The notes below the pieces were generated by a model. That model saw nothing but the letters and a program-made list of their open reading frames with translations. It did not search any database and was not told where the DNA came from. Both the position numbers and the translations under genes were made by a program. Below, piece after piece: positions 2,807-27,453 of a DNA stretch of 47,023 nucleotides (position 1 is the stretch's first letter; each line of letters begins with the position of its first letter). Location: assembly GCA_964416755.1 (NCBI GenBank), contig CAYQFH010000006.1, positions 1 through 47,023 on the forward strand. Direction: 5' to 3'. The DNA is from an uncultured Piscirickettsiaceae bacterium (lineage in GTDB: Bacteria > Pseudomonadota > Gammaproteobacteria > GCF-002020875).

Positions 2807-3244
2807 ATGGATAATGGTCGCTACAGCGTTGGAGTTTTGATCGCGGTTCTGCTCTCCCTGTTTGCTCTGCCAGTTGTTGCAGAGGAGGAAGAGGATCCTC
2901 CGGTCATCATCAGTGAGTATCTTGCGTTGGGAAAAGAGCCATTCAAGGTCAATCTGAGTGGCAAGGGGGAGCATGTGATGGTGCTACATGCGCAGGTTTA
3001 TGTTACCACCCAGCGTGCCAAGGATGGCATCATCTTGCATCTGCCCAAGATCCAGAATGACGTGCTGGAGTTGTTGGGAGAGCAGACCTACAAGAAGATG
3101 AAGAAGACCAAGCACAAGAAGAAGCTGCGCAATAAGGTGTTGAAGCTGATTCGCAAAGTGATGGAACAGCGTGAAATTTTGAACAAGCCGAAGAAGCAGG
3201 AAGAGGTGGCAGAGGTTATCTTTACCCAGGTACTGCTTCAATAG
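2807..3244 (+). CDS. FliL-family flagellar basal-body-associated membrane protein (FliL-like)
   Basis: N-terminal TM helix (VGVLIAVLLSLFALPVV). Pattern Y-LALGKEPFKVNL...VMVLHAQVYV...LPKIQNDVLELLGEQT...KKKLRNKVLKLI...VAEVIFTQVLLQ follows the FliL family layout (YxxL-x-FxVNL, LPxxRxxLLxLL, and C-terminal V-x-V-x-FT-x-F/L-hydrophobic-Q). Assignment is by eye only. Confidence 0.55.
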   Translation: MDNGRYSVGVLIAVLLSLFALPVVAEEEEDPPVIISEYLALGKEPFKVNLSGKGEHVMVLHAQVYVTTQRAKDGIILHLPKIQNDVLELLGEQTYKKMKKTKHKKKLRNKVLKLIRKVMEQREILNKPKKQEEVAEVIFTQVLLQ

Positions 3245-10772: not shown

Positions 10773-12122
10773 ATGGAAGCGACACTCAACCCTCTGCTAT
10801 CTACCTCCAAGCAGGTGCAATCAGGCCTTTCTGCGGCAACCAGCGATCTGTTCTCGATAGATTCGGGTAATCTAATGAAGAATCAGTCTACAGAAGACTC
10901 CTTTTCTGATCTGCTGCAAGAGAAAATTGATAAAAAACGTTCTGCCAAGAGAGAGGAGCGGAATAATTTGCCGCTTGGTGGCAAAGAGGAGTCAATTCAG
11001 CCAGAGAGAAATAGGAAGTCTGAGTTGAATAAAGAGGATTCAGTGGTAAAGCAGGCGGAGAATTCTCGTGAAGGAGAGACAGAAAAGCAGAGATCCGCAG
11101 AGCAAGCCGGTCACAGTAAGGAGCAGTCTGAACAGACAGCGTCTGATGCGGAGCCAAATGCGGCAGATGGTGCTGAGGATGGTAGTGATGTAACTGCTGA
11201 AGGATTGGTATCAGATCAGATACTAGTGGCAGAAGATGGAGAGGCCTCAGAAACCGATAACCCTGAAGCAATGCTGAATGCATTGCAGCAGCCTGTTTCC
11301 GGGAATCAACAAGAGACTGTTGCGGTTGTCTCTCCGCAAGCTGCAGCCAACCAACAACACAACGTAACTGAGGAGGCCGTCGAGCTGGATGAAGCCCTGA
11401 TGGAAGAAGAGATGGTGAAACGGGCATCCGCTGAGCAGGGGCGTGGCAGAAGTCCGAACCTTCCTCCTGAGCTTCAGAAAGGGGACCAGCAGATTCACCT
11501 GAATGAAGAGATGAACCTCAAATCCGCAATGAATGCACTAAAAGAGCAGCATGCTGCGGGTGCAATGGCAAGTGGACAGGGGACGGGAGGGGAGCAAACT
11601 TCCCAGAATGGAGGCAATCAGTCCATGAATTCACTCTTCTCGGCAGCTGATCCGGTCAATTCTGCAGAGCGCCCTGTCCAGTTGAAAGGGATGACGGTGA
11701 CTCCGCAGTCGAGACAGTGGTCCTCGGAACTGGGTGAACGTATCCTCTTCATGGCTGGAAAGAAGATTCAGAGCGCAGAGATCCGGCTCAATCCACCCAA
11801 TCTGGGATTGATGGAGGTGAAACTGGCGATCAGCGGTGAGCAGGCGCAACTGGTTTTCCAGAGTGGCAATGCCAATGTGCGTGATGTGCTGGAATCGGCG
11901 GTACCCCGTATTCGTGAGATGCTGGAGCAGAACGGAATCACTCTGACTGATGTTACGGTCTCGGATGGTAAGCAGCAGCAAGAGAGTGCTGAGTCTGGAG
12001 AAGGCGAACAGCGTAGAGGGGATGGCAGCCTTGGCGGTTTGGGAGAAGGTGTTGATGAAGAGGTTGTGCCCATCTCCTCAATGGCAGTCGATCGAATCGG
12101 CCTGGTCGATTACTATATCTAA
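10773..12122 (+). CDS. fliK: Flagellar hook-length control protein FliK
   Basis: Disordered Glu/Gln/Ser-rich N-terminus. C-terminal Flg_hook domain (AEIRLNPPNLGLMEVKLAISGEQAQLVFQSGNANVRDVLESAVPRIREMLEQNGITLTDVTV). Position after fliJ. Confidence 0.82.
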   Translation: MEATLNPLLSTSKQVQSGLSAATSDLFSIDSGNLMKNQSTEDSFSDLLQEKIDKKRSAKREERNNLPLGGKEESIQPERNRKSELNKEDSVVKQAENSREGETEKQRSAEQAGHSKEQSEQTASDAEPNAADGAEDGSDVTAEGLVSDQILVAEDGEASETDNPEAMLNALQQPVSGNQQETVAVVSPQAAANQQHNVTEEAVELDEALMEEEMVKRASAEQGRGRSPNLPPELQKGDQQIHLNEEMNLKSAMNALKEQHAAGAMASGQGTGGEQTSQNGGNQSMNSLFSAADPVNSAERPVQLKGMTVTPQSRQWSSELGERILFMAGKKIQSAEIRLNPPNLGLMEVKLAISGEQAQLVFQSGNANVRDVLESAVPRIREMLEQNGITLTDVTVSDGKQQQESAESGEGEQRRGDGSLGGLGEGVDEEVVPISSMAVDRIGLVDYYI

Positions 12123-12162
12123 CCCATAAGTGAAGTGATAGCCGATAACCGGGGGTGCTGTT

Positions 12163-13197
12163 TTGATTGATGGGCTGGAGGATCAGCAGATTATTGCATT
12201 GGTGGTGGTGCTGACGGCATCGCTGTTGGCAGCAATCGGATATCTGGTAGCACGTCTGAGTCGCCTCTCCCGGAGTCAACCTTCCGCAGAGCCGACCATC
12301 GTTAAGGATGAGCGCTATGATCGGTTGGTGCAGCAGCTATCCGCACTTGAATTGAATGTTGATGCATTGCACCAGGCTACCACGGTGAGTGCCCCGGACG
12401 TGGGGCAATTCCTCAGCCGTCTGGCAGAACATATTCAACTCCTTGAGAGGATGGCAGAGCAGCAGTCAGCTTCTGAACCGGTGATTCAAGTGCCGGCAAT
12501 GGTAGACGATAATGGCCAGATGGAGGCACTGCAGTCGCAACTGGTACAGCAGCAACAGGGCATACAGCGGGTTGGAGAGCGAATGCAGACAATAACGGCA
12601 TTGCTCTCTCAAATGCGGGGTCAGTTACAGCAGCCACTGGATGAGTCGGAAAAGGAGGGGGCAGGGCCTGAAGTGGATGTCTGTATTGATAATCTGCAGC
12701 AGTTGTCGATGATGGTCAGCAGTGCATCCGATGAGATTACCAGAGCCAGTGATCAGATTCAGCGCCTTGAGGTGGATAGTGTCAATGTGGGTGGGGTACT
12801 GGACGGGATTGGAGAGATTGCCGAACAGACCAATCTGTTGGCGCTGAATGCAGCGATTGAGGCAGCACGTGCAGGAGACCAGGGGCGTGGTTTTGCGGTT
12901 GTGGCGGATGAAGTGAGAACATTGGCGCAACGTAGTCAGGATCTGACTGGTGAGATCTGGGAGCGGGTTGAAAACTGGAAAGAGATTACCAGCGAAGCGA
13001 TGGAGGCTGCAGCTGAGAGTCGTTCAAAAATGACCCGGGGATTGGACCAACTGCAGACTTTCAGCCATTCGCTGCATTCCATAGCGGAGCACCATGGTGC
13101 TGATGCAGGACGTGAAATGGAACTGGTGCAACCTCTCCAGCAGCTGGCAGAGGCAGTAGAGTTGCTCAGTGAAGAGGTGAAGTTGCTACAGCCGTAG
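12163..13197 (+). CDS. Miniature membrane-anchored methyl-accepting-chemotaxis-protein signalling-domain protein (no sensor domain, no HAMP recognised)
   Basis: One N-terminal TM ([21 protein letters not shown]). Gln-rich coiled coil. MCP hairpin-tip signature [44 protein letters not shown] start with gggggtg RBS, 40 nt after the fliK stop. Confidence 0.7.
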
Positions 13198-13207
13198 TCA
13201 ATTCAAC

Positions 13208-14356
13208 CTACCAGGACCGGACCAGGTCAGTTGTCTGAATGCCGAGTAGAGAGGCATCCACATCGGTCATCCCTGAGGCCCGTGTATTGGAGACCTGTGT
13301 GATCTGCAGTGTAGCCAGGATATTAAGCGGGTTCTCTTTTTCCACAATGACCAGTCGATCACCGGAGTGTATTCCTGCATTGCGTCCAACCGGCAAGGTG
13401 ACCACGTTACCCTGGATGGAGTCGATACCGGTAACCATTGGCTGGCAGGAGAGCTCATCCAGCAGTTTGCGTGTCTGAGTAGTAATCAGTTGCTGAAAAC
13501 CACTTCCGGTACTGGAAGAGAGAAAGCGATGGCTGCCAACGGGGATGTTTCTGCCTACATAGGTGGTCCCCAATACGGTCACTCCCTCCTGGTGTTGAGC
13601 AATCAGATCACCAGTGGCACCATCGTAGAGTGTAGTCTGAACTTCAAGATAACGTTGTTGTACCTGATCTTGTACAATACCAATCAGTGAGGAGATCCCC
13701 TTCATCGGGCCGCTCTCGGCCAGATCTCCAACAGCTTGACGACCCGCCTGTTCCAGTGTGCCGGCTACAATGAACTGTACACCACTCTGCTGGGCAAGCT
13801 GCTGTATCTGCTCCTGAAGCTCTCCATAATTGCCACCTTCAACGGCATAATCACTGAGGTTGACCGCTTTCAGTGAAGGAGAGTGGTTGATTTGGCGAAT
13901 CAGCATTCCGGCCAATCCCTGTTCAACGGCTCTCAGATCACTGCTGTCATGGAGTGCATGGTTGGTGAACTGGGTGACCCCAATACGCTTGTTGTGCACC
14001 AGTGCATCAGGCGAACCGCAGTGGAGCGAGTTGTCTCCGACATCGGCCGAGATTCGCACATGGTAAATCCCATCCTCCTGCCACTCCTGCAGCATATGTA
14101 CCTTGCCCACCTTGCCCTGTGTGCGGATACGGAAGGTATCGGAGCGAATGGAGAGGTTGTTCATGATGGTGTCCGAGGTGACCTGGGCACCATTCTCCAA
14201 ACTGGCCTGATTCATTGCATCCAGTGTTGCCAGATAACGTGCTGTAGAGAGGTCATTATGGCGGATGGGTGCCTTGCCCTCCGACGTGAGGAATACTGCA
14301 GCAGCTGATTGGCTCAGCAACGTGGCAGCGAGTAGTGCAATAAATTCTCTTTTCAT
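13208..14356 (-). CDS. FlgT-like periplasmic flagellar outer-disk (H-ring) assembly protein
   Basis: Signal peptide (ALLAATLLSQSAAA). 382 aa, close to Vibrio FlgT (~377 aa). Three-part layout with a C-terminal small-barrel motif (VTGIDSIQGNVVTLPVGRNAGIHSGDRLVIV) like the FlgT_C domain. In an operon with a FlgP-like gene. Assignment is by recollection of family features, not by search. Confidence 0.5.
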   Translation of the reverse strand: MKREFIALLAATLLSQSAAAVFLTSEGKAPIRHNDLSTARYLATLDAMNQASLENGAQVTSDTIMNNLSIRSDTFRIRTQGKVGKVHMLQEWQEDGIYHVRISADVGDNSLHCGSPDALVHNKRIGVTQFTNHALHDSSDLRAVEQGLAGMLIRQINHSPSLKAVNLSDYAVEGGNYGELQEQIQQLAQQSGVQFIVAGTLEQAGRQAVGDLAESGPMKGISSLIGIVQDQVQQRYLEVQTTLYDGATGDLIAQHQEGVTVLGTTYVGRNIPVGSHRFLSSSTGSGFQQLITTQTRKLLDELSCQPMVTGIDSIQGNVVTLPVGRNAGIHSGDRLVIVEKENPLNILATLQITQVSNTRASGMTDVDASLLGIQTTDLVRSW

Positions 14357-14368
14357 GGCAACATCAAG

Positions 14369-15439
14369 TCAGCGAGCATTATAACTATAAGGCTTGATTG
14401 TATTCGATTGTTCCATGGATTTCAGAATATTACGCTCAATCTGTTGCTGCTGCCGTGTCAGTCGTTCCAACTGGCTATTCATTGTATCCAACTGCCGGGG
14501 TGAAGTGGGGGCTTGCGTCGGTTGAGGTTGGGATGATTGCTGTTGTGCAATCTTCTCAACCAGTGCCTGCAGACTACTTTGTGCGTGTGCCAATGATTGC
14601 TGTTGTCTGTTCAGATTGGTGAGCTGTTCCAGCAGTGTCTCCGGTAGAGTCGGGGTTGCAGGAGTTTGCGTGTCGACTCTGTCGATGCTCTTTGCCATTG
14701 AGGATTGAGCAGAACGGATCTGCTCGTATTGTGCCATCAGTTGATCCAGTTTCTCCTCCAGTCGCTTGTTGGAACTGGAGGTAACATTGGTGCGAGACTG
14801 CTGTTGTTGCACTTGTTCAAACTGTACCTGTTGCTGCTGAATTTGTGTCAGTTGTTGAGTCATCAGGTCGAAGCCTGAGAGATCTATCGTTGGGGGAGCA
14901 CGGCTGGAGATCTTCTTGATCTCTTCAGTGATCTGCCTAGTGTACTCTTCCTGGTTCTGTTGCCGGGTCAGCAGGGTAGCAATTTGTTGATTTTGATCGA
15001 CCAGCTGCTGTTGCTGTGTTTTTTGAATCTGTTGCAGTGTTTCAGTGACGCTATCTGGCAGTGAGATCTGTGCAGAGGGAGCAGGGAGTGTGGCAATTGA
15101 TTGCTGTGTCTGCTCCAGCCGATTCTCAATTTCTGACAGTTGATTGATGACTGGATGGAGATTTGTGGATGTCTGACTGCGTTGACGGTTAGCAATCAGA
15201 TCGAGGGTTGCCTGTATCTGATTGAGCTGCTCAATATTGGGTAGGTCGTCCGATGAGGTGGTGGCCCGGGATGGGTTGAACGGTTTTCCGCTCAGCGCAG
15301 CAAGCTGTTGGTTCAACTGCTGCTGACCATTGCGTACCTCAAGAATGAGCAGGGTAAACAGTGTGGCAAGGCTGAACAGCCCCAAGGTGATAAAGAGCAC
15401 CAGTGAGGTGAACAGACCTTTGGGTTGTGTGTTGCTCAT
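14369..15439 (-). CDS. Gln-rich coiled-coil protein with an N-terminal membrane anchor (unknown function)
   Basis: TM helix (LFTSLVLFITLGLFSLATLFTLLILE), then ~320 aa of Gln/Leu/Thr-rich predicted coiled coil. No recognisable family. Lies between the flgP-like and flgT-like genes on the same strand. Confidence 0.55.
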   Translation of the reverse strand: MSNTQPKGLFTSLVLFITLGLFSLATLFTLLILEVRNGQQQLNQQLAALSGKPFNPSRATTSSDDLPNIEQLNQIQATLDLIANRQRSQTSTNLHPVINQLSEIENRLEQTQQSIATLPAPSAQISLPDSVTETLQQIQKTQQQQLVDQNQQIATLLTRQQNQEEYTRQITEEIKKISSRAPPTIDLSGFDLMTQQLTQIQQQQVQFEQVQQQQSRTNVTSSSNKRLEEKLDQLMAQYEQIRSAQSSMAKSIDRVDTQTPATPTLPETLLEQLTNLNRQQQSLAHAQSSLQALVEKIAQQQSSQPQPTQAPTSPRQLDTMNSQLERLTRQQQQIERNILKSMEQSNTIKPYSYNAR

Positions 15440-15550
15440 CGCACTCTATAGCAATCGAAAATTCTCCACCCCCTGCTGAGGGAGGCGCAGGAGGCAGAGA
15501 AGAGGGTCACCCTCTACTCAAGAAGAGGAGAGGGGCTTGCGATATCCAGC

Positions 15551-15985
15551 TTAGAAGCTGTTGGCAATATCGAAGAAGTCCTGGTCGATGACCATCTCTA
15601 CAACGGTTTCGTAGTTGCCGTTGCCGATTGGGTTGATGCTGACGATCTCGGCACCACGCAGATAGGCATCGACATAGACGCGGAAGTTATCGTTCTTGGC
15701 AACCATCGAGGAGACAGTGGTGGAACCGTTGACACGTACGCCATAGACCTGCTCGGAAAGTGCACGGTAGGCGTCCATCTTGGAAGCACGGATTGAGGTC
15801 AGCATACGCTGTCCATCAGAGTATCCTTCGTAGGTGCTCTCTGCGCCGTAACCGATGGCAGAGATACGGACGGGCTCTGCAAAACCGATCTCTTCCGCAC
15901 CTGCAGGTGCAGCCTGTGCTGTAGTGCCCCAGGCCATCAAGAGGGCAGGGGCCAGAGGGAGGATGTTATTCAATTTACGTTTCAT
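15551..15985 (-). CDS. flgP: FlgP-like (LPP20 family) flagellar basal-disk/H-ring protein
   Basis: Signal peptide (ILPLAPALLMAWGTTAQA). LPP20/FlgP pattern VRISAIGYG...QRMLTSIRASKMDAYRALSEQVYGVRVNGSTTV...VDAYLRGAEIVSINPIGNGNYETVVEMVID. Start moved to ATG 15985 (MKRKLNN...), which has an aggaga RBS; the ORF track starts at 16015. No lipobox Cys, unlike Vibrio/Campylobacter FlgP. Confidence 0.65.
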   Translation of the reverse strand: MKRKLNNILPLAPALLMAWGTTAQAAPAGAEEIGFAEPVRISAIGYGAESTYEGYSDGQRMLTSIRASKMDAYRALSEQVYGVRVNGSTTVSSMVAKNDNFRVYVDAYLRGAEIVSINPIGNGNYETVVEMVIDQDFFDIANSF

Positions 15986-16042
15986 GATTGTGCTCTCCTG
16001 TCTAATTGTCATCATGTTGTTTTGGTTGTTATTGCTTTTTGG

Positions 16043-16690
16043 TTACGGGAATGTGATTCCCTGGTTATATCCTTCCGGGAATTGTGATCCTCGTCCACGT
16101 CGTTTCTTCGGACCATCTCCCAGCAGTTCATTCAGCTTCTGTTCGATACGCTTGAGGTCTGCTCTCATGTTGCGTACCTGTTTACCGGCCTGTGAGGCGC
16201 CGCGAACAGAGCGTTTGATCGATGCTGTGTCACTATTGAGGTTTTCAGCAAGCTGGCGCAGGATCAGTTGTGTGTCTGTCAGCATCATTGTGATTTCTGA
16301 AAGATCACCGTCTTCACCTTCATACTCATCTTCGTATTCGCCATCTTCTTCGTCACCTTCCTCATCGGACTCTTCTTCATCCTCATCGGACTCCTCTTCA
16401 TCCTCATCGGCATCTTCGTCCTCTTCATCTTCGTTAGGGAGGAGAACACCTGCCAGGGCGGAGATCTGTTCACCCATACCCGGAACCACCTCGCCGTGCA
16501 GTTCGGTAATTTTGGTGCTCATCTCCTCGACCATGGCACCATCGCCACCGGAAGGGAAGAGGATCAGATAGACCAGAATTGCGATATTGAGGACTACAGA
16601 AAGCGCGCCCAGGATCAGTGGAACCAGACCACCGCCGCCACCGCCGCCTTCTTCCTCTTCGCTCTCGTCGTTTGCTTCGTCTTTAGCCAT
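16043..16690 (-). CDS. Poly-acidic single-pass membrane protein (unknown function)
   Basis: Acidic N-terminus, Gly7 run, and TM (LVPLILGALSVVLNIAILVYLILF). ~45-residue Asp/Glu block (DEEDEDADEDEEESDEDEEESDEEGDEEDGEYEDEYEGEDGD). Basic helical C-terminus (KRSVRGASQAGKQVRNMRADLKRIEQKL...KKRRGRG). No recognisable family. Confidence 0.55.
   Translation of the reverse strand: MAKDEANDESEEEEGGGGGGGLVPLILGALSVVLNIAILVYLILFPSGGDGAMVEEMSTKITELHGEVVPGMGEQISALAGVLLPNEDEEDEDADEDEEESDEDEEESDEEGDEEDGEYEDEYEGEDGDLSEITMMLTDTQLILRQLAENLNSDTASIKRSVRGASQAGKQVRNMRADLKRIEQKLNELLGDGPKKRRGRGSQFPEGYNQGITFP
16360..16422. repeat. Three tandem 21-bp repeats encoding the (D/E)7 heptads of the acidic protein
   Basis: cctcatcggactcttcttcat / cctcatcggactcctcttcat / cctcatcggcatcttcgtcct are head to tail. 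On the coding (minus) strand they give DEDEEES-like heptads. Confidence 0.8.
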
Positions 16691-16749
16691 AATCTTCGTT
16701 TCTTGTTGTTAACTATTATTAATGGTTAATGCTTTGTCGATCCGGCAGG

Positions 16750-18081
16750 TTAAAAGAGCTCTACATCGCCATCCTGCATGGAGGACTTGGAACTGCTGCT
16801 GCTGGATGCCAACGAGCCGCGTGCCTGTGAAATTGCCCCTTGCAGCGTACCCAATTGCTCCTGACAGTCGCTGCCACTACTGACACTGCCCTGTAGCTGG
16901 TGGACACTGTTGTCAATCTGATCTGCAAACTGCTGCAGATTGTTGGTCTGGCCGTCGAGCTGTCCCAGAATCTGTGAGACGATATCCTCGAACTGGAGAG
17001 AGCGTACTGCGATCGATACATTGTCATCCACCTGGGTAATCATTCCCGAGATCTGCTCAAGCTTGGTAGAGACGGCATTGTTCATCTTCTCCAGGTCATA
17101 CATCATGTTGTCTACGGTAGATTTGGAGGTGAGCGCTTCGTTCACGTCTTCTGTGGCCACTTTGGAGACGATGGAACGTACATCATCAATAGTGGTTTTG
17201 GCCTGTTCTGCCTGGGCACGAATCTGCTCATTGAGCTGGTTGGAGTGGAGAGAGAGCTTTCTCACCTCATCGGCAACCACCGCGAATCCTCGACCGGCAT
17301 CACCGGCACGTGCGGCCTCAATGGCTGCATTCAGTGCCAGCAGGTTGGTCTGATCCGCAATGCTCTTTACATCGACCAGCAGGGTGAAGATCGCCTCGAT
17401 CTGTCCCACCATCTCATCAATCTTGCCGACGGTTTCAGTACTGCGCTGTCCCACATTGGAGAGCTGTGCAACCAGCTTCTCCATCACCTGGGTGGTTTCG
17501 TTGGAGAGCTGCTGGAAGCTGAGGGCCTGTGAGTCTGAACTGCCTTCACCGGAAGCCAGGCTTTCGATCAGAGAGACGACAACATCGTGCTCTTGTTGGG
17601 TGTGGTCATTCAGGTTATTGAAACTATTGTTAAGGTTGGTGATTGCATCCTTGATGATGTCCCGGATGTTGGAGGTTTTCTCCTGAATGGAGGAGGATTC
17701 ATGGCGCAGGTACTGTCCAATCTCTGTTGTGATACCGCTGATCTGAGGCGTGATATTGACAGCTTCTGCCATCGGCATTGCAATGGGTTCGGGGACTGGC
17801 TCTGGAGCAGGTGCGGACGCCTCGGCCTCCTGAGCAGGTGTCTGTGCTGTGGTGGCTGCTTGCTTGCTATTCAGCAGTGCCATAATGGTCCATGCAGTTG
17901 CAGTGATCACCGTTAGAATAATTGGCACGATACCCGCTCCGAGCAGAATCTCCGAGATGATCGCAATTATGGTGATGAGCAGGGCAGGCCAGTAAAATTC
18001 TATGAAATTACTGCTGTTCTGTTGTGCACTGTTGCTGTTCGACTTATCCATAATAGTTACGTATGTTCTATGCTGTTTCAA
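16750..18081 (-). CDS. Methyl-accepting chemotaxis protein with a TM hairpin and no periplasmic sensor domain
   Basis: Two adjacent TM helices ([40 protein letters not shown]), then a Pro/Ala linker and long helical region. MCP tip signature [44 protein letters not shown] start at 18081 is supported by a gaggaag RBS. Confidence 0.8.
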
Positions 18082-18157
18082 ATTCTTCCTCTTGAGCGTG
18101 CAACATCCAGAGTTGCAGTTTCAAGAGGCTTTCCAGTGGCGCTTAATTCCAGTAGGT

Positions 18158-18184
18158 TTATCGGCGCGGCTTTTTTTCTCTTTA
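18158..18184 (-). promoter_or_regulatory. Sigma-28 (FliA) promoter for the MCP/acidic/flgP/Gln-rich/flgT-like operon
   Basis: The minus strand reads TAAA-gagaaaaaaagccgc-GCCGATAA. This is an exact match to the core TAAA-N15-GCCGATAA consensus, ~75 nt upstream of the MCP start. Confidence 0.65.
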
Positions 18185-18276
18185 GAAATCAATTGGTTCT
18201 AAGGTTTTTCTTAGTGCGTGATAAGAGTGTTCTCATACTCCGTCACATTGTTATATTTCTCGCTGCAACCCTTTAT

Positions 18277-18291
18277 GCAAGGCGTATGCCA
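18277..18291 (-). promoter_or_regulatory. Candidate sigma-54 promoter (minus strand) upstream of the sigma-28 promoter
   Basis: The minus strand reads TGGCAT-ACGCC-TTGC with canonical GG-N10-GC spacing. It is ~195 nt upstream of the MCP start and just downstream of the flhB-like stop. Confidence 0.4.
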
Positions 18292-18325
18292 TGGAGAGAA
18301 TGACAACAAATTGGCGTTATCCGGT

Positions 18326-18598
18326 TTATGAAATCTGTTTGCCGGAGAGTTGATAGGCAAATGCGATAATTTCGGCAACGGCAATATAGAGATTTTCCGG
18401 GACTTCGCTGCCCAGCTCAACGGCAGAGAGCAGCTGAACCAGTTCCGGTTCTTCATAAAGTGGAACATCATGCTCTTTTGCCAGAGCAATAATCTGCTCG
18501 GCAATGACCCCTTTTCCGGTTGCGGTAACCTTCGGGGCGCCAGTACCGTCATATTGGAGGGCAACAGCGAGGTCGAGCGATTTCTCTCTCTTTTCCAT
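18326..18598 (-). CDS. Stand-alone FlhB C-terminal (FlhB_CC-like) domain protein, EscU/YscU/HrcU switch-protein family
   Basis: 90 aa. LDLAVALQYDGTGAPKVTATGKGVIAEQIIALAKEHDVPLYEEPELVQLLSAVELGSEVPENLYIAVAEIIAFAY matches the FlhB/YscU cytoplasmic domain downstream of the NPTH cleavage site. There is no TM region and no NPTH motif. Confidence 0.8.
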   Translation of the reverse strand: MEKREKSLDLAVALQYDGTGAPKVTATGKGVIAEQIIALAKEHDVPLYEEPELVQLLSAVELGSEVPENLYIAVAEIIAFAYQLSGKQIS

Positions 18599-19672
18599 CT
18601 ATGCCTTGATTGAGAATCCGGTGGTGGTTGAGCTGGGTTCAGGAGCCACATCATGAATATTCTTCTGACGGCTGAAGAGGGTACCGGGTTGCAGTCCCGC
18701 AATCGATAGAGCTGACTCCAGCGTTTCGATCTGCTCCGTTATCAGAGCGCTGGTCTCTTCCTTTGCTGTCAGAAAGTGGATGTCCAACTGGTCGTTATGG
18801 TGAATGGCGTGAATCTCCATTTCACCCAGTTGAGGAGGATTGAGCTGAATCTCGATATGCCAGCGGGACCGGTTCTCATCTTCACTCTCCTGCTGTTGAC
18901 GGAATTTCAGCGCGGCCTGCTGTGGGTTGTCCTCAACCATAAAGGGGATCTCTACCTGCCAGCTTCGCTGTGTGGAGTCCCGACTTCCCTGGTCTGGTTG
19001 TGAGGAGGGAGAACCTTGCGCCTGACTCTGTGCGCTTTTGAGTTGATTGAGCTCAATGCGTGCAATCATCGATTCAATCTGTTGTAGCGCCTTCTGTTGT
19101 CCGGGTTGATTGAGCAGTTTGGCTTTGAGCTGCAGCAGTTGCATCTTCAGATCCCCTTTAAGGGACTCTGTTCTGTTGTGGAGCAGGTTGTTCTCCATAA
19201 AGGTTCCGGACTTGCCAATCTGCTGTTTGACCACTTTGGGGTTGAAGAGTTGAGTGATGGTCGGGAGTTGTTGCAGGATCTGCTGAATTGCCATCTGTCC
19301 GCCACTGCCCGTGGTTTGGCTCTGCATCAGCTGCCCCAGATTCTGCAGTGCCTGGGGAAGTGGTAACTGTTTGGGGTAGATTTTCTGTCCGAGTGCATCG
19401 GTCGGAGAGGTGGCAGGCTTGCTAATGGTCAGCGTGATCTGTGGTTGTAGCTGGGCCACAGTCAGTTTCAGTTGTTCACCACTACGCAATGGAAGATCGG
19501 TTTTTGCACTGAGTGTCCCTTGTGGTAGTTGCAATTCTGCCTTTCCACCACGACTGAAGAGCACCGTGGCCTGCAGTTGATCCCCCAGCTGCAAGCGTGG
19601 CAGAGAGCCAGTCTGGTTGGTGACTGCCAGTGTCTGACTGGTTGCGGTTACGGGGGGGGCGGTGATGTTCAA
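18599..19672 (-). CDS. FliK-like protein (second Flg_hook-domain protein)
   Basis: C-terminal Flg_hook-type domain (WHIEIQLNPPQLGEMEIHAIHHNDQLDIHFLTAKEETSALITEQIETLESALSIAGLQPG). Gln-rich middle region. Its stop directly abuts the flhB-like start. Apparent TTG start with no clear RBS. Confidence 0.65.
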   Translation of the reverse strand: MNITAPPVTATSQTLAVTNQTGSLPRLQLGDQLQATVLFSRGGKAELQLPQGTLSAKTDLPLRSGEQLKLTVAQLQPQITLTISKPATSPTDALGQKIYPKQLPLPQALQNLGQLMQSQTTGSGGQMAIQQILQQLPTITQLFNPKVVKQQIGKSGTFMENNLLHNRTESLKGDLKMQLLQLKAKLLNQPGQQKALQQIESMIARIELNQLKSAQSQAQGSPSSQPDQGSRDSTQRSWQVEIPFMVEDNPQQAALKFRQQQESEDENRSRWHIEIQLNPPQLGEMEIHAIHHNDQLDIHFLTAKEETSALITEQIETLESALSIAGLQPGTLFSRQKNIHDVAPEPSSTTTGFSIKA

Positions 19673-19795
19673 TGGGGTTGGTATTCTTTTTGCAGCAGGG
19701 GGTTACTAAAAGGGAGTGGACGTTTTTATGGCATAAGACTTGGGTAAGGCGTCAGTAGGAATTTACTCAAGTTTAGGACGATACAGTGATCCATG

Positions 19796-19822
19796 TAAAG
19801 TTCTAACCAACCCAGACGATAA
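19796..19822 (+). promoter_or_regulatory. Sigma-28-type promoter upstream of the acidic triple-motif protein
   Basis: TAAA-gttctaaccaaccca-GACGATAA. Spacer is 15 nt, with one mismatch to GCCGATAA. Lies ~75 nt upstream of the ATG at 19896. Confidence 0.5.
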
Positions 19823-19838
19823 TGCGATTAGAGAACCA
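19823..19838 (-). promoter_or_regulatory. Weak candidate sigma-54 promoter for the fliK-like/flhB-like pair
   Basis: The minus strand reads TGGTTC-TCTAA-TCGCA. GG-N10-GC spacing is correct, but there are three mismatches to TGGCAC-N5-TTGCA. Confidence 0.3.
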
Positions 19839-19895
19839 GTGTCAGATAGATAAAGCCGTGTACGGTTTGTGCACAGATAAAATGAGATAACAGTT

Positions 19896-21011
19896 ATGGC
19901 AGAAGATCAAGAGAACGGGGTTGAGGCTGAAGCAGAAGAGGAGCTCGATATTGATGCACTTCTTGATGATGTGGCAGAAGGTGGAGAAGGTGGCCCTGAA
20001 GATGTAGAAGATGAAGCAGCAGTAGATGTCGATAGCGTACTGGATGATGCAGTTGAAGATGCGCCTGCAGAGGGGGCTGATGAGATTGTTGCTGAAGATG
20101 ATATTGATGCCATTATGGATGATGTGGCATCAGAACCTGAAACGCCTGCAGAGGAAGAAGTGATCGATGAGATTACAGAAGTGGCTGATGAGCCAGCTGC
20201 TCCGACAGCACCTGCTGAATCACCTGCTCCGGCAGCAGCGCCATCAACAGGGGGGGCATCTTCTGCGGAGCTGGATGGAGTGGTCGCACGGCTGAATGCT
20301 GCAGTAGAGAAGAGTGAATTTATTACCCAGCAACTGGAGGAACGCCACTCTGCGGCAGAACGGTTTGTCAAAGGGGTGAAAGAGGCCTCTAAAGAGCTGA
20401 AGGCAGATCAGGCATCAATCGGTGATGTGGAGAAGAACAGCAAACTGGGGATGATCCTGGGTGGAGTTACCCTGCTGCTCTCCGGTGCGGTACTGGGGCT
20501 GGTAGTCACTGAAGACAAGGAGACGATGCTCTCTCAGGTTGAAACGGTCAGTGCTTCGGTCGATGGCGTGGGAGAAAATGTCAACCTGATTGCGGGTCGT
20601 ATCTTTGAACAGCAGCAGCAGATGGATGAGGCGATGGCCTCTTTTGCCTCTCTGAAAGAGGCGTTGGAGAAGCTGGAGAGTCAACCTGCACCAGCCCCTG
20701 CACCAGCGACACAGGATCCTGTTATGGTAGAGGGTGGTGATGGTGTAGAGGGAGGAGAAGCCGCCATGCCGGAAGTTGCAGTCGACTTCACAGTGGTTGA
20801 AGAGAAGATTGACGAAACCCAGCAGAAGATTCTTGCACTGCATGAGCAGATCAAGAGCAGTGAAGCGCATCTGCCGGAGTTGAAAGCCTACCTTGAACAG
20901 TTGAGTGTTGGACAGCAGCAGCTCAGGCAGGAGCAGGAGAGGTTAATGCAGCTGCAACAGATGATGCTGGAAGCGAAAGAGCGAGGGAAGACAATCTATA
21001 AATTCCCGTAA
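19896..21011 (+). CDS. Single-pass membrane coiled-coil protein with three N-terminal acidic D-x-D-A-L-L-D-D repeats (unknown function)
   Basis: N-terminal ~80 aa carries three ~26-aa repeats headed by LDIDALLDDV, VDVDSVLDDAV and DDIDAIMDDV. Then a Pro/Ala linker, a helical region, a TM (LGMILGGVTLLLSGAVLGLVV) and a C-terminal Gln-rich coiled coil. No recognisable family. Confidence 0.6.
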   Translation: MAEDQENGVEAEAEEELDIDALLDDVAEGGEGGPEDVEDEAAVDVDSVLDDAVEDAPAEGADEIVAEDDIDAIMDDVASEPETPAEEEVIDEITEVADEPAAPTAPAESPAPAAAPSTGGASSAELDGVVARLNAAVEKSEFITQQLEERHSAAERFVKGVKEASKELKADQASIGDVEKNSKLGMILGGVTLLLSGAVLGLVVTEDKETMLSQVETVSASVDGVGENVNLIAGRIFEQQQQMDEAMASFASLKEALEKLESQPAPAPAPATQDPVMVEGGDGVEGGEAAMPEVAVDFTVVEEKIDETQQKILALHEQIKSSEAHLPELKAYLEQLSVGQQQLRQEQERLMQLQQMMLEAKERGKTIYKFP

Positions 21012-21040
21012 TACGATAACGGTGGAGTGAATCAGAAAAT

Positions 21041-21071
21041 GCCGGTGGGGCAACCCTCACCGGCATTTTTT
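21041..21071 (+). terminator. Rho-independent terminator
   Basis: gccggtgggg-caa-cccTcaccggc stem-loop (~10 bp, GC-rich) followed by attttttgt. Confidence 0.75.
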
Positions 21072-21078
21072 GTGTGGC

Positions 21079-21094
21079 TGGCATACTAATTGCT
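21079..21094 (+). promoter_or_regulatory. Sigma-54 promoter upstream of flgB
   Basis: TGGCAT-ACTAA-TTGCT with canonical spacing, ~50 nt upstream of the flgB ATG. Confidence 0.65.
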
Positions 21095-21144
21095 CGAAGG
21101 TTGATGACGTTCAAATAAGTAACAGAAAACCGGCGGATAAGATT

Positions 21145-21531
21145 ATGCCTAATGTACTCGACAACTATCTGGGTGTGCATACACAAGCACTGCAGGTGCG
21201 AACCAAAAAGACCGAACTATTGGCCGCCAACCTTGCCAATGCCGACACTCCCGGATACAAGGCGAAGGATATTGACTTTCGTTCTGCACTGAAGATGGCC
21301 TCCAGTGAGAAGATGAAGACAACGCATTCTCGACACTTTGATTTCAGTGGTCAGGATGCAGGTATGGTGCAGTTTCGTGTCCCTACACAACCATCTGTGG
21401 ATGGCAACACAGTAGAGGCCCATATCGAACAGGGTGAGTTTATGGATAACGCCATGCGTTACCAGGCCACTGTGCAGTTTCTGGGTGGAAAATTCAAATC
21501 GCTGAAATCCGCTTTGCAACCTCCACGATAG
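21145..21531 (+). CDS. flgB: Flagellar proximal rod protein FlgB
   Basis: LGVHTQALQVRTKKTELLAANLANADTPGYKAKDIDF and C-terminal YQATVQFLGGKFKSLKSAL. ATG at 21145 is chosen; the ORF-track start at 21070 lies inside the terminator/promoter region. Confidence 0.9.
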   Translation: MPNVLDNYLGVHTQALQVRTKKTELLAANLANADTPGYKAKDIDFRSALKMASSEKMKTTHSRHFDFSGQDAGMVQFRVPTQPSVDGNTVEAHIEQGEFMDNAMRYQATVQFLGGKFKSLKSALQPPR

Positions 21532-22056: not shown

Positions 22057-22072
22057 TGGCACACCCTTTGCA
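22057..22072 (+). promoter_or_regulatory. Sigma-54 promoter upstream of flgD
   Basis: TGGCAC-ACCCT-TTGCA is an exact consensus match, in the 135-nt flgC-flgD gap. Confidence 0.65.
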
Positions 22073-22836: not shown

Positions 22837-24852
22837 ATGGGCATCGGACATAGCGGATTGAGTGGAGTTAAGGCGGCAACCTTTGACCTCTCTGCAATTG
22901 GTAACAATATCTCCAATGCGGGAACCGTAGGCTTCAAGAAATCCACGGTTGAATTTGCGGATGTAATGTCAGGGACTGTAGGTGGTGGTGTGGAGGTCTC
23001 TGACCTGCGCCAGTCATTTGATCAGGGCAGCATTCAGGGCACTGGTAACACTTGGGATCTGGCAATCTCAGGGCGTGGCTTCTTCAAGGTTTCTGAAGGT
23101 AGTGATGACCCCAATGTGGCCGTAAAGGACAACTACTATACCCGAAACGGCTCATTCGGTGTGGATGCTGATGGTTATGTAGTCAACTCTCGTGGTATGC
23201 GCCTCCATATGTTCGAGGCAAAAAATACCGGTACTACTGTAGAGTTCCCTGTTTCCACCAACACCACCGAGATCCAGATTGAACAGACCGATGCAGTGGC
23301 CAAGGCCACGGAAGAGCTGACCGGTGTATTCAATGTGGATGCACGTGTAGCTGCACGAGGCCGGGCAGTTGAGCCCAGTACGGCGGATCTTGAATCTTCC
23401 GATGATGGAACGGTTCCATTGACCATGCCCACTGCCTCGGATACCAATCGATTGACGGTTGGAAGTAGTTTTATCCTGAATGGGATTACGGTTGAGGCAA
23501 GCGGTAGTGCACAACTCAATGGTGGGCCAGCCAACTCCACCTTCCCTGCCAACTCCGAATTCAAGATGCGGGATCTGGATGGTAACGTGGTCACGATCAG
23601 TATCGGTACCGGAACCAAACTGGATGACTTCAAGACGGCCATCAACGCAAAAACCGATGATACCGGCGTGGTTGCCGAGTATCTCAGTTCTGGACAACTG
23701 AAACTGACCTCCACCGAGGGAGATATTGTGATCTGGGATTCCGGTGCAGATACCATCATTGAGGATCTTGGCTTTACTGTACCCACACCAGGCACGGCGG
23801 TGGCGCAGAATGAGGTTATTGAGCCGGGTGTTTCCCTGGATTCTCTGGCCAATGATATCAATGCCTCCGGTACCGGTGTCACCGCAGCTATTATCCAGCA
23901 TAAAGGAGCTGATGTGATCCAGATGAGTGCATCGGTCAATATTGAGATTGCTGCAGGTACCGGAGTCACCAGAGGGGCAGACACTACCGGCGATCTGCTC
24001 GATTTTGCCGGACTTGCGCCGGGACCAACCAATGTCTCTTATGATGGAGTGGTAGACCCGACCAATGACCTGACTTACGACCATTCAGTGACCTCGATTC
24101 TGTATGACACACTGGGTTCCAAACAGACGGTCAACACCTTCTTTCAGAAGATCACTGATGGTCATTGGGAGGTGTTTGCACAACGGGTTGACTCGCTGGG
24201 GAATACCTATCCTGCAGACAAGGCGGAGACCCTTAAGGTGGCAACCTTGATGTTTGATAACACCGGTGGTCTGACCCAAGTCTACTCAGGGGAGAACTCA
24301 GGGGATGCCGAGATTACTGCAAACCCCTCTTATGACACTACAGCGGCGGTTCCGGTAACGGCCAATGGGGCAAAAATTACCATCCCTACCGGCTCTGCGG
24401 CAGTGGGCAAGGATGAGTTCCTGACCATGGATATTGCAGGGACCAACCAGTTTGCCGGCAAGTTCCGCATTATTGACCTCTCTCAGGATGGTTACTCCAG
24501 TGGTGCGTTGACGGGGGTTGATGTGGATGAAGATGGCGTCATTCGAGCCAGTTATACCAACGGCAATACCGAAGAGCTGGGCAAAGTGGCACTGTTTGAA
24601 TTCAATAATCCACATGGATTACGTCAGGAAGGCGGTGTACTCTGGGCTGAGACCAATGATTCTGGTGATGCCCGTCCCGGTGAGCCTGGTGAGTCGATCT
24701 TTGGCCGCATCAAGTCGCAGTCTCTGGAGAGCTCTGCAGTGGATGTGACTTCCGAGCTGGTGAATCTGATTACCGCGCAGCGTAACTTCCAGGCCAACTC
24801 CAAGATGATCAGTGCCAGTAAAGAGATGAATCAGGTGGTATTGAACATCTGA
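22837..24852 (+). CDS. flgE: Flagellar hook protein FlgE (enlarged, 671 aa)
   Basis: N-terminus HSGLSGVKAATFDLSAIGNNISNAGTVGFKKS. C-terminus LESSAVDVTSELVNLITAQRNFQANSKMISASKEMNQVVLNI. Large Thr/Gly/Asp-rich central insertion. Confidence 0.9.
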   Translation: MGIGHSGLSGVKAATFDLSAIGNNISNAGTVGFKKSTVEFADVMSGTVGGGVEVSDLRQSFDQGSIQGTGNTWDLAISGRGFFKVSEGSDDPNVAVKDNYYTRNGSFGVDADGYVVNSRGMRLHMFEAKNTGTTVEFPVSTNTTEIQIEQTDAVAKATEELTGVFNVDARVAARGRAVEPSTADLESSDDGTVPLTMPTASDTNRLTVGSSFILNGITVEASGSAQLNGGPANSTFPANSEFKMRDLDGNVVTISIGTGTKLDDFKTAINAKTDDTGVVAEYLSSGQLKLTSTEGDIVIWDSGADTIIEDLGFTVPTPGTAVAQNEVIEPGVSLDSLANDINASGTGVTAAIIQHKGADVIQMSASVNIEIAAGTGVTRGADTTGDLLDFAGLAPGPTNVSYDGVVDPTNDLTYDHSVTSILYDTLGSKQTVNTFFQKITDGHWEVFAQRVDSLGNTYPADKAETLKVATLMFDNTGGLTQVYSGENSGDAEITANPSYDTTAAVPVTANGAKITIPTGSAAVGKDEFLTMDIAGTNQFAGKFRIIDLSQDGYSSGALTGVDVDEDGVIRASYTNGNTEELGKVALFEFNNPHGLRQEGGVLWAETNDSGDARPGEPGESIFGRIKSQSLESSAVDVTSELVNLITAQRNFQANSKMISASKEMNQVVLNI

Positions 24853-24929: not shown

Positions 24930-24945
24930 TGGCATATTTACTGCA
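24930..24945 (+). promoter_or_regulatory. Sigma-54 promoter upstream of flgF
   Basis: TGGCAT-ATTTA-CTGCA with canonical GG-N10-GC spacing, ~57 nt upstream of the flgF ATG. Confidence 0.6.
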
Positions 24946-25768: not shown

Positions 25769-26710
25769 ATGTTTAATTCATTGTGGGTGGCAAAGACAGG
25801 AATGGAAGCACAGGATTTTCGTGTGCAGACCATTGCCAACAATATGGCAAATGCTTCCACCAACGGATTTAAAAAAGATTTGGCCCATTTTTCCTCTTTG
25901 GGCTATTCAACTGTCCGGAGTTCTCAAGGGAAGGCGGAGACAGGAGACAATGACTCTAGCGCCCCTTTAATGATAGGGCATGGTGTGCAGGTTGCCGGAA
26001 CATCCAAGGTTTTTACGCAAGGTGAGAAGAAAGAGACAGAAAACTGGACAGATCTGTATATTGGGGGTGAGGGGTATTTTGTCTTGTCTGGGAATGATGA
26101 AGATAGCCCGGGTGAGGGGCCAGTGTTTACCAGAGACGGCCACTTTGAGATGATTGAAACAACCTCAGGTTCTAATATTTTCAGGCTTAGACATGTTTCC
26201 TCGGGAAGGTATCTGATGGGTGAAAATGGACAGAACCCTGCTGGAACGAACATGGCTGTTACCGGGCCTACAGATATATTGGAAATTGATATCAACTTGG
26301 GCACCAGAGTTACTTCTGGAGCGGGTACGGGTACTTTTCCTGACGGTGTAGCCAACACATTGCATGTGGATCAGGATGGAACGGTTTGGGAGGAAGATGG
26401 CGGGGGTAGTAAACATGCGGATTCTGTCAGAGCGATGATCCCCATAGCCCGTTTTGGTTCTCAAGCAGGGTTGATTCCTGAAGATGGAAACGTTTTTCAG
26501 GATAATGAGGGTCGAACGGGTGGTGCGGTTTTCAATGATGCCGATGACAGTGGATTTGGCATTATCCGTTCTCATGGTCTTGAGAACTCAAATGTTACTG
26601 TAATTGATGAAATGGTAAATATGATCGAGGCGCAGCGTGGTTATGAGATGGGCTCCAAGGTGTTGGAGAAGGCGGATGAGATGATGAGCACACTGATTCA
26701 ACGCACTTAA
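25769..26710 (+). CDS. flgG: Flagellar distal rod protein FlgG (divergent, 313 aa, with insertions)
   Basis: SLWVAKTGMEAQDFRVQTIANNMANASTNGFKKD and C-terminal LENSNVTVIDEMVNMIEAQRGYEMGSKVLEKADEMMSTLIQ. Position between flgF and flgH. About 50 aa longer than the ~260-aa enterobacterial protein. Confidence 0.85.
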   Translation: MFNSLWVAKTGMEAQDFRVQTIANNMANASTNGFKKDLAHFSSLGYSTVRSSQGKAETGDNDSSAPLMIGHGVQVAGTSKVFTQGEKKETENWTDLYIGGEGYFVLSGNDEDSPGEGPVFTRDGHFEMIETTSGSNIFRLRHVSSGRYLMGENGQNPAGTNMAVTGPTDILEIDINLGTRVTSGAGTGTFPDGVANTLHVDQDGTVWEEDGGGSKHADSVRAMIPIARFGSQAGLIPEDGNVFQDNEGRTGGAVFNDADDSGFGIIRSHGLENSNVTVIDEMVNMIEAQRGYEMGSKVLEKADEMMSTLIQRT

Positions 26711-26724
26711 CCGAGTAGATTAAG

Positions 26725-27453
26725 ATGAAAGTAGTTACAAAAGTTTCAATTGTATTGATGACAGGGACATTACTGAGTGGGTGCGTTTCCAACCCTGAAC
26801 GCCACCGTGCAACCTGGGAGCCTGTTGCACCACCAACACAGCCAAAGAAGGTCGTGACCAATGGTTCAATCTATCAGGCCAGTGAGAATGAATCCCTTCT
26901 GTCGGATAAGCGTAACTGGGCTGTGGGTGATCTGATCACCATTGTCCTTGATGATGATGACATGAATGCCACCAAGAATGCGAGTAGCTCGGTAACCAAG
27001 CAGGATAATAGCCCGCAGGCCCTTTTTGATTATGCGGTTGGATCAACGGGCCTGCCATCCAAGGTGCTGCCGGCAAGTGCTACGGGCGCTACTGCCAGTA
27101 GAAACTTTGAGGGGAGTGGAGCGCTCTCCAAGGATAATACATTGGAAGGAACAGTCACTGTTACTGTGGTTGAGGTCTTTGCCAATGGCAACCTGCGTGT
27201 AAGGGGTGAGAAGCGGGTGACCATCAACGATGGAGACGAAGTGATCCGAATTTCGGGTATTGTCCGCTCACAGGATATCGGTGACCATACCGCTACCACC
27301 GAGGCGATCTGTCAATGGTCCAACAACTGCGTCTCCTCGATGAATGTGGCAGATGCCCAGATTGTCTATGTTGGTGAGAGTGGTATGTTGGCCAGTGCCT
27401 CCAGTCAGGGCCTCCTGGGGCGCTTCTTTATGAGCGCACTCTGGCCTTTCTAA
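26725..27453 (+). CDS. flgH: Flagellar L-ring lipoprotein FlgH
   Basis: Lipobox LLSGC. GSIYQASENESLLSDKRNWAVGDLITIVL and NGNLRVRGEKRVTINDGDEVIRISGIVRSQDI. Confidence 0.92.
   Translation: MKVVTKVSIVLMTGTLLSGCVSNPERHRATWEPVAPPTQPKKVVTNGSIYQASENESLLSDKRNWAVGDLITIVLDDDDMNATKNASSSVTKQDNSPQALFDYAVGSTGLPSKVLPASATGATASRNFEGSGALSKDNTLEGTVTVTVVEVFANGNLRVRGEKRVTINDGDEVIRISGIVRSQDIGDHTATTEAICQWSNNCVSSMNVADAQIVYVGESGMLASASSQGLLGRFFMSALWPF

Follow-up and report, generated by a model that had tools for sequence, protein, structure and literature searches.

The window analysed here is a stretch of 47,023 nucleotides (nt) from an uncultured Piscirickettsiaceae bacterium (contig CAYQFH010000006.1 of assembly GCA_964416755.1), and the first part of it is made up by a polar-flagellum locus. 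Between fliK and flgB of this locus lies a block of nine genes (positions 12163-21011), which we designate open reading frames (ORFs) 1 to 9. According to Pfam and NCBIfam, six of the nine belong to known families: two genes for methyl-accepting chemotaxis proteins (MCPs; ORF1 and ORF6), flgT (ORF2), flgP (ORF4), flhX (ORF7), and fliK2 (ORF8). The other three, ORF3, ORF5, and ORF9, are orphans. Our analysis makes it likely that the block belongs, as a fixed accessory part, to the polar-flagellum locus of a marine Thiotrichales clade that is uncultured, and that the orphan products have roles at the motor.

Gene content, conservation, and transcription of the block

Table 1. Coordinates of the block and of the flagellar genes and signals around it (TM, transmembrane segment; aa, amino acids)
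Feature	Position	Strand	Remarks
ORF1, short MCP	12163-13197	+	344 aa; one N-terminal TM helix; MCPsignal E = 3.8e-34
ORF2, flgT	13208-14356	-	FlgT_N, FlgT_M, plus FlgT_C; predicted signal peptide
ORF3	14369-15439	-	Gln-rich; predicted N-terminal TM anchor, helical region, C-terminal PY[SR]Y[NQR]AR
ORF4, flgP	15551-16015	-	LPP20 fold; predicted signal peptide, no lipobox cysteine
ORF5	16043-16690	-	predicted bitopic, TM 22-44; no family
ORF6, MCP	16750-18081	-	two-TM hairpin, no periplasmic domain; MCPsignal E = 7e-26
Sigma-28-type motif before ORF6	18158-18184	-	perfect TAAA-N15-GCCGATAA
Sigma-54-type motif of the ORF6-ORF5-flgP-ORF3-flgT operon	18276-18291	-	TGGCATACGCCTTGCA
ORF7, flhX	18326-18598	-	FlhB_CC-like, 90 aa; no TM region, no NPTH site
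ORF8, fliK2	18599-19672	-	second protein with a FliK C-terminal domain; Flg_hook E = 3.6e-15
Sigma-28-like motif before ORF9	19796-19822	+	one mismatch
ORF9	19896-21011	+	predicted bitopic, TM 182-206; no family
Hairpin terminator	21033-21072		preceded by an A-run, followed by a T-run; separates ORF9 from the flgB promoter
Sigma-54-type motif of flgB	21079-21094	+	TGGCATACTAATTGCT; TGGCAT-N5-TTGCT
fleQ-like	3-1496		upstream of the block
fleS-like	1511-2737		upstream of the block
Small FliL-domain gene	2807-3244	+	145 aa; PF03748, E = 4e-14
fleR-like	3274-4668		upstream of the block
fliE, F, G, H, I, J, K	fliK 10773-12122		after the fleR-like gene
flgB	start 21145		inside ORF 21070-21531; downstream of the block
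flgB through flgJ, 334-aa ORF, flgK, flgL	end 33245		

The block was compared in 17 loci of 20 kb (L001-L017), comprising 10 species-level genomes, labelled as uncultured Piscirickettsiaceae, Thiotrichales, or Gammaproteobacteria, and 7 metagenomic contigs. The FlgT search returned only relatives with 60-84% identity, all from marine metagenomes and metagenome-assembled genomes (60-79% among related genomes), and an exact-sequence look-up found no sequence on record identical to FlgT of the window. In every locus spanning both flanks, the genes follow the order fliJ, fliK, ORF1, flgT, ORF3, flgP, ORF5, ORF6, flhX-like, fliK-like, ORF9, flgB, and the strands of the nine genes are likewise identical. 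This synteny was observed in 11 independent loci (L001-L003, L005-L007, L009, L010, L013/L014, L016, and L017), in which the nine genes co-occur and stay linked to fli and flg genes; one of these loci, L006, carries a 3-kb insertion in the gap between flgT and ORF1 (L006 11140-14353, flgT to short MCP). The GC content is flat over the block and its flanks (0.48-0.54). Scans of the block found no RNA family in Rfam, no terminal, flanking, or mobile-element-like repeats, and no integrase, insertion sequence (IS) element, or tRNA; the sole long inverted repeat is the tip-coding region common to the two MCP genes. Because the gene order is the same in all loci with both flanks, the GC content is uniform, and signs of mobile elements are missing, the block is not an insertion but a fixed accessory part of the flagellar locus.

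A divergent lineage (L008, L011, L012, and L015) is rearranged and lacks both MCPs and ORF3. The order of genes there is flgC, flgB, ORF9, fliK2, flhX, znuCB, znuA, ORF5, flgP, flgT, followed by fliA, flhG, flhF, flhA, flhB, and fliR; the znuCB/znuA zinc-transporter cluster, which replaces ORF6 between flhX and ORF5, was seen in L011 and L012. Since this lineage retains ORF9, fliK2-flhX, and ORF5-flgP-flgT, these genes, always found beside flgB, constitute the stable core of the block, and ORF1, ORF3, and ORF6 are optional components. In the same two loci, flgB-flgC are followed not by flgD but by Rnf/Nqr genes and a gene of the lactate/malate dehydrogenase type; these genes and the zinc-transporter cluster fall in L011/L012 3267-4152 and 7136-9850.

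Sigma-54-type motifs were found both before flgB, where the motif recurs in L001, L002, L003, L005, and L010, and before the operon containing flgP and flgT. The latter motif has equivalents in L001-L003, L005-L007, L009, and L010, and stands directly upstream of ORF5 in L008, L011, and L012. The sigma-28-type motif before ORF6 has one-mismatch equivalents in L001, L003, L005, L009, and L010 and is missing from loci without the MCP. Thus, with the sigma-54 motif kept and the sigma-28 motif gone together with the MCP, the operon for the predicted H-ring proteins FlgT and FlgP looks like a sigma-54 operon of the basal-body class, and the MCP appears to have its own late promoter. The sigma-28-like motif before ORF9 is shared by the window, L002, L003, L009, and L010, so that in roughly half of the loci ORF9 would be expressed late. 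Upstream of ORF1 we found only a -10 element, GCCGATAA at 12142-12149, and no good -35 element. The terminator was missed by a generic promoter and terminator scan, which reported nothing near 21040, and was confirmed by direct folding (-29.3 kcal/mol, z = -5.97); it was also recovered as an inverted repeat. Further good sigma-54-type motifs (TGGCAC/T-N5-TTGCA-like) precede flgD, flgF, and flgK (22057-22072, 24930-24945, and 30199-30214, plus strand), which suggests that the flg cluster has several sigma-54 promoters in its interior.

The fliE-K and flgB-L operons are independent, and the block represents conserved gene content between them. Within the minus-strand operon, the gaps from ORF6 to ORF2 are 59, 27, 111, and 12 nt by coordinates. 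ORF8-ORF7 and ORF9 are divergent and form separate units, and ORF1, which shares the strand of fliK and starts 40 nt past it, may be part of the fliE-K operon; altogether the block comprises four or five separately regulated transcription units. A preliminary description of this stretch had correctly placed the end of fliK, the start of flgB, all nine ORFs with their strands, the gaps of 12-111 nt, and a real terminator near 21041, and its family labels hold, as ORF1 and ORF6 match MCPsignal, ORF2 the FlgT domains, ORF4 LPP20, ORF7 TIGR00789 and Bac_export_2 (C-terminal part), and ORF8 Flg_hook. Other parts of it had to be revised. The three transcription units proposed there are too few, and the products without a family are three rather than four, as the mini-MCP is a plain MCPsignal protein. 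The idea that sigma-28 promoters bound the block does not agree with the sigma-54-type motif of flgB, the location of the best sigma-28 motif inside the block, and the lone -10 element of ORF1. Finally, the block does lie between fli and flg genes, but to say that it splits their operons was an overstatement.

Predicted H-ring proteins and the fliK2-flhX pair

FlgP and FlgT are components of the outer-membrane-associated disk of the motor (the H-ring), and in Vibrio flgT and flgO-flgP are located beside the flg operon, on its upstream side. ORF2 exceeds the Pfam cut-offs for the N and M domains of FlgT (51.5 bits vs. 28.8 and 34.1 bits vs. 31.2, respectively). The FlgT profile of the clade matches solved Vibrio FlgT chains (8z5n, E = 1e-13; 3w1e, E = 1e-12; also 9yec and 9ydo) and spans residues 9-336 of FlgT in 8z5n. 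The N-terminus, MKREFIALLAATLLSQSAAAVF, was recognized as a Sec signal peptide by reading of the sequence, with no dedicated predictor run. We assign ORF2 as FlgT, a predicted periplasmic protein of the H-ring.

ORF4 scores 43.3 bits against LPP20 (PF02169; cut-off 25.9), and in a profile search of the PDB it matches solved FlgP chains (9yds, E = 1e-11; 8z5n_2, E = 1e-10). Neither the window protein nor any aligned ortholog contains a single cysteine, so that none has a lipobox, which implies that the H-ring is not lipid-anchored through FlgP. FlgH of the window (26725-27453, plus strand) retains an LSGC lipobox. No FlgO-like gene was detectable in the block, the window and the 20-kb loci being the only sequences examined. 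FlgO is an alpha/beta lipoprotein whose gene stands immediately before flgP. Here the gene just upstream of flgP, in all loci examined, is ORF5, which is not FlgO: it has no Pfam or NCBIfam match, and its predicted structure is wholly helical and includes a TM segment. FlgT and FlgP would build an H-ring attached otherwise than in Vibrio.

The remaining known genes of the core encode a FliK-like protein and a free FlhB_CC-like domain. ORF7 covers positions 261-334 of the 335 positions of the Bac_export_2 profile (E = 3e-19), and in the alignment its start falls just past the position of the NPTH cleavage site of FlhB; it is thus the predicted counterpart of FlhB_CC, the C-terminal cleavage product of FlhB. 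ORF8, the end of which abuts the start of ORF7, is adjacent to it in all loci examined. By these features, ORF8-ORF7 can be assigned to the already known pair named fliK2-flhX in Pseudomonas putida, and its products presumably act on the export-specificity switch. A motif scan upstream of ORF8 found no TAAA-N15-GCCGATAA with two or fewer mismatches.

Orphan membrane proteins and alternative explanations

The three orphans are real genes, as their TM segments and terminal peptides are kept across orthologs. ORF3 matches nothing in Pfam, NCBIfam, or the PDB beyond coiled-coil noise. Both of its termini are conserved across 9 loci, the C-terminal peptide being invariant, whereas the helical region varies, giving total lengths of 223-524 aa. 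ORF5 consists of an acidic N-terminus, the TM segment, a helix, a poly-Asp/Glu region (~84-127), a conserved helix at residues 128-189 (LSEITMMLTDTQLILRQLAENLN...), a basic patch, and the end G[IV][ST][FY]P. It has no Pfam or NCBIfam family and no match in a PDB profile search; a word-index search yielded no more than 20 homologs, with identities of 46% or higher, and a metagenome scan gave only relatives of the same clade. Profile-profile comparison rejected the possibility that ORF3, ORF5, and ORF9 are paralogs (hhalign probabilities of at most 5%).

ORF9 begins with an acidic region, continues with a Pro/Ala linker, a helix, the TM segment, and a helical C-terminal half, and has an invariant YKFP end. 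Pfam and NCBIfam have no match for it, and a PDB search gave no more than noise from coiled-coil or low-complexity sequence, if anything. When the C-terminal 236 aa served as query for phmmer, exhaustive searching of 1.84 billion representatives gave 5 relatives, all at least 40% identical, and one further match (E = 8.6e-4) that we read as spurious; a word-index search likewise found same-clade relatives only. ORF5 and ORF9, both searched globally, were thus found in this clade only, and all three orphans are predicted to be single-pass helical proteins. The excess of Lys and Arg before the TM segment of ORF9 (2-5 before vs. 1-2 after) favours an N-in topology, with a cytoplasmic N-terminus.

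The acidic region of ORF9 carries three motifs of the form D[IV]D[AS][LIV][LM]DD, starting at nt 19947, 20025, and 20100 (residues 18, 44, and 69) and reading, in order, ELDIDALLDDVA, AVDVDSVLDDAV, and DDIDAIMDDVA. The first contains DIDALL at residues 18-23, followed by a flexible acidic linker, and the DNA of copies 1 and 3 is 87% identical over 30 nt. Orthologs have one to four copies in total, the first being present in all 15 orthologs with a complete N-terminus. Among 303,325 six-frame residues of the window and the 17 loci, the pattern [DE]ID[AS]L[LM] occurs 15 times, always in ORF9 N-termini. AlphaFold2 models each motif as a short helix (residues 19-28 for the first). A PDB query with the 26 aa around DIDALL returned zero matches, the query being too short and biased. 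The C-terminal CheY-binding helix of CheZ (...QVDDLLDSLGF) shows a pattern like that of the DIDALL motif. EIDALL is the conserved docking motif for phosphorylated CheY (CheY-P) at the N-terminus of FliM and FliY (PMC9126983). None of cheY, fliM, and flhG is among the genes of the window.

Taken together, these features are consistent with a putative bitopic protein that shows one to four DIDALL-type helices in the cytoplasm, where it may dock CheY-P, or alternatively FlhG, at the inner membrane near the motor, and that has its C-terminal half in the periplasm; the motif supports such docking but does not show it. ORF5, and in most members ORF3, may be inner-membrane-anchored motor partners that dock by their conserved C-terminal peptides, possibly compensating for the missing lipid anchor of FlgP and for the FlgO gene undetected in the block. 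A more specific scheme, which we regard as doubtful, makes ORF9 a motor-proximal adaptor: its DIDALL helices would receive CheY-P or FlhG, its periplasmic coiled coil and YKFP tail would reach into the H-ring of non-lipidated FlgP and FlgT, and ORF5 (with its [FY]P tail) and ORF3 would be further ring-associated components, so that chemotaxis output or flagellar number is coupled to a periplasmic scaffold.

Several points weigh against assigning these roles. For the H-ring and export proteins, FlgT_C is marginal at 25.9 bits, below its cut-off of 27; ORF7 reaches 90.1 bits with TIGR00789 (flhB_rel), below the cut-off of 117.35; and other parts of the genome may encode FlgO, MotX, and MotY. For the orphans, the AlphaFold2 models consist of helices and disorder at low confidence, with a predicted template-modelling score (pTM) of 0.20 for ORF9 and 0.19 for ORF5, the latter with a predicted local distance difference test (pLDDT) score of 60. 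The Lys and Arg distribution is weak or ambiguous in ORF3 and ORF5 and leaves their topology undecided. The promoter type of ORF9 is not uniform, being sigma-28-like in the window and four loci, sigma-54-like in L006 and L007, and unassigned in others, and DIDALL is a six-residue match in an acidic region that could be a convergent amphipathic helix with another partner. Lastly, the physical association of the three orphans with the motor is one that we infer.

The first alternative concerns the partner of ORF9. Its DIDALL motif could bind FlhG, the MinD-like regulator of flagellar number, rather than CheY-P; in that case ORF9 would act at the membrane as a landmark or sink and tune the number and placement of flagella. 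In Shewanella, FlhG binding requires the EIDALL/EIDAL motif of FliM, which is also sufficient for it (10.1101/2022.04.21.489128), polar flagellates use single-pass proteins for pole-linked motor control, for example ZomB with the landmark HubP (10.1101/2021.07.06.451403), and in L011 flhF and flhG are located ~3 kb from the module. The late sigma-28 promoter in half the loci, however, suits genes of chemotaxis and motor function better than early assembly control, and we consider this alternative unlikely.

Rather unlikely, in our view, is that ORF3, ORF5, and ORF9 are envelope or other non-flagellar proteins hitch-hiking in the locus, their low-complexity regions having no specific function. 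The orphans do lack a family, a structure, and an experimental link, their sequences are largely of low complexity or disordered, and one lineage dispenses with ORF3. Against this, ORF5 is kept just upstream of flgP behind a conserved sigma-54 motif despite the rearrangement, ORF9 stands beside flgB in all 15 loci that could be checked, and both the DIDALL motif and the conservation of the terminal peptides speak for specific partners.

The two MCPs bear on another alternative. Both match PF00015 (118.5 bits for ORF1 and 91.5 for ORF6) with a conserved tip of the signalling hairpin, through which alone they are related, and neither has a periplasmic domain or a sensor, HAMP, or PAS match at E <= 0.1. 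In every full locus an ORF1 ortholog follows fliK and shares its strand; the L011-type relatives have none. The true start of ORF6 is probably the ATG at 18051; its orthologs are 64-85% identical, and its C-terminus consists of a Ser-rich linker and a conserved end peptide (SMQDG, then DVELF, DIDLF, or EIDLF). The tip-coding regions of the two genes form a 103-nt inverted repeat (12817-12919 and 17259-17361, 80% complementary), on which inversion or gene conversion could act. Canonical MCPs have D-x3-Q at the position equivalent to a CheZ-like motif in ORF6. That motif, an invariant stretch of 10 residues (in the region of residues ~359-443), resembles the catalytic motif AxxFQ-DxxxQ of CheZ (PMC7750401). 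The layout of the ORF6 tail recalls the linker and CheY-binding tail of CheZ, or the pentapeptide tether of MCPs; assignment of the C-terminal part as CheZ was rejected, with no PF04344 match even at E <= 10.

The preliminary description had named a motor-tethered chemosensory assembly as one possibility; in its stronger form, the two MCPs and the orphan membrane proteins would make up a receptor array attached to the motor. Two MCP genes in a flagellar locus, one of them in the operon of flgP and flgT, the CheY-docking-like motifs of ORF9, and the conservation of ORF6 with its C-terminal peptide would fit such an assembly. This idea, like that of a single nine-gene unit, is weakened by the divergent lineage, which lacks both MCPs and ORF3 while ORF9, ORF5, flgP, flgT, and the rest of the core persist; in addition, the sigma-28 promoter of ORF6 vanishes with its MCP, neither cheA nor cheW is among the genes of the window, and sigma-28-controlled MCP genes are commonplace in flagellar clusters. 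We find this alternative very unlikely. Within the locus, both MCPs are ordinary passengers of the late class and not part of an obligatory complex: ORF6 would be an optional head of the flgP/flgT operon with its own sigma-28 promoter, and ORF1 a second, short MCP trailing fliK.

The view that the block is horizontally acquired cargo put between the fli and flg operons, for which the interruption of the layout expected from Pseudomonas and Vibrio could speak, is effectively refuted already by the uniform GC content, the lack of mobile-element signs, and the presence of the block at the same site in species-level genomes down to 60% FlgT identity. The preference of the preliminary description for a lineage-specific accessory set is supported by the 11-locus synteny, the uniform GC content, the conserved sigma-54 and sigma-28 motifs, and the restriction of ORF5 and ORF9 to the clade.

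Neighbouring genes and comparison with known systems

Several genes outside the block are also unusual. The small FliL-domain gene is a fliL paralog in an uncommon place, between the fleS-like kinase and the fleR-like regulator. FlgJ (from 28687) has only the rod-binding domain (132 aa), and the 334-aa ORF that comes directly after it, in the gap between flgJ and flgK (29087-30091, plus strand), which has no Pfam match even at E <= 0.01, may be a further clade-specific flagellar protein or the missing peptidoglycan hydrolase. FlgE (22837-24852, plus strand) is long, at 671 aa, and contains a Flagellin_IN motif insertion; the FlgG-like rod protein (25769-26710, plus strand; 313 aa) matches Pfam only in its terminal rod domains. 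Beyond flgL, the window contains the housekeeping genes queA, tgt, yajC, secD, and secF, and past secDF it encodes a response regulator with two receiver stretches followed by GGDEF and EAL domains (40168-42453, plus strand) and a dynamin-family GTPase (44013-45449, plus strand).

Much of the diversity in torque and behaviour of flagellar motors is explained by scaffolds in the periplasm and by accessory proteins specific to single lineages, and the known examples come mostly from a few cultured genera. The present locus adds a defined and conserved set of candidates from an abundant uncultured marine clade, namely three orphan bitopic proteins tied genetically to flgP and flgT. Not everything that first looked odd in the block is new, as flgT/flgP and fliK2-flhX were already known; what is new here are (i) the three bitopic orphans, (ii) a natural variant of the H-ring with a FlgP predicted to be non-lipidated and no FlgO gene detectable nearby, and (iii) a candidate membrane-anchored protein with multiple EIDALL-type motifs. 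To our knowledge, ORF9 is the first candidate for a membrane-anchored protein with multiple FliM-type docking motifs for CheY or FlhG.

The closest known counterpart is the H-ring of Vibrio, with which the block shares the three-domain FlgT, the LPP20-fold FlgP, the matches to solved chains, the location adjoining the flgB-L operon, and the sigma-54-type promoters on the flg operons. In V. cholerae, the H-ring is built of FlgT with C26 symmetry and of the lipoproteins FlgP and FlgO with C58 symmetry, which Cys18 and Cys16 attach to the outer membrane (10.64898/2025.12.02.691832). In contrast, FlgO is undetected in the block, FlgP lacks the lipidated cysteine that ties the Vibrio ring to the outer membrane, the operon of flgP and flgT also encodes two orphan bitopic proteins and, in most cases, an MCP, and flgA, flgM, and flgN are not adjacent.

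For the orphans, the comparisons are with proteins of similar concept or layout. MotF of Rhodobacter sphaeroides is a lineage-restricted bitopic protein recruited by FlgT; it is a clade-specific single-pass protein encoded with FlgT and FlgP, on which it depends, in a system without MotX and MotY (PMC7277832), and ORF3 and ORF5 would follow the same concept. MotF differs in acting on the MotB plug, and the likeness is one of concept, not of sequence. ZomB of Vibrio and Shewanella has a TM helix at the N-terminus, a helical region, and a conserved motif at the C-terminus, as do ORF3 and ORF5, and in Shewanella this short motif is needed for function (10.1101/2021.07.06.451403). The ZomB motif is KKKW, whereas ORF3, ORF5, and ORF9 end in PYSYNAR, GITFP, and YKFP, respectively; this comparison is by layout, with no family for ORF3 or ORF5 in Pfam or NCBIfam, and none of the three has the KKKW end of ZomB. 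ORF9 resembles FliM and FliY in having its DIDALL motif near the N-terminus in a predicted short helix; it differs from them in lacking a FliM, FliN, or CheC domain, in its predicted membrane anchor, and in having up to four copies of the motif.

The ORF8-ORF7 pair shares with fliK2-flhX of P. putida and with FlhX of Helicobacter pylori a gene for a FliK C-terminal domain followed by one for a ~90-aa FlhB_CC-like protein without a membrane domain, and as in P. putida the pair is linked to a flagellar cluster. The P. putida operon (PP_4328/PP_4329) is FliA-dependent and of unknown function (10.1101/2021.08.29.457346), whereas ORF8 is not preceded by a sigma-28 motif at the mismatch limit given above. 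The present reconstruction extends this so far unexplained pair beyond Pseudomonas.

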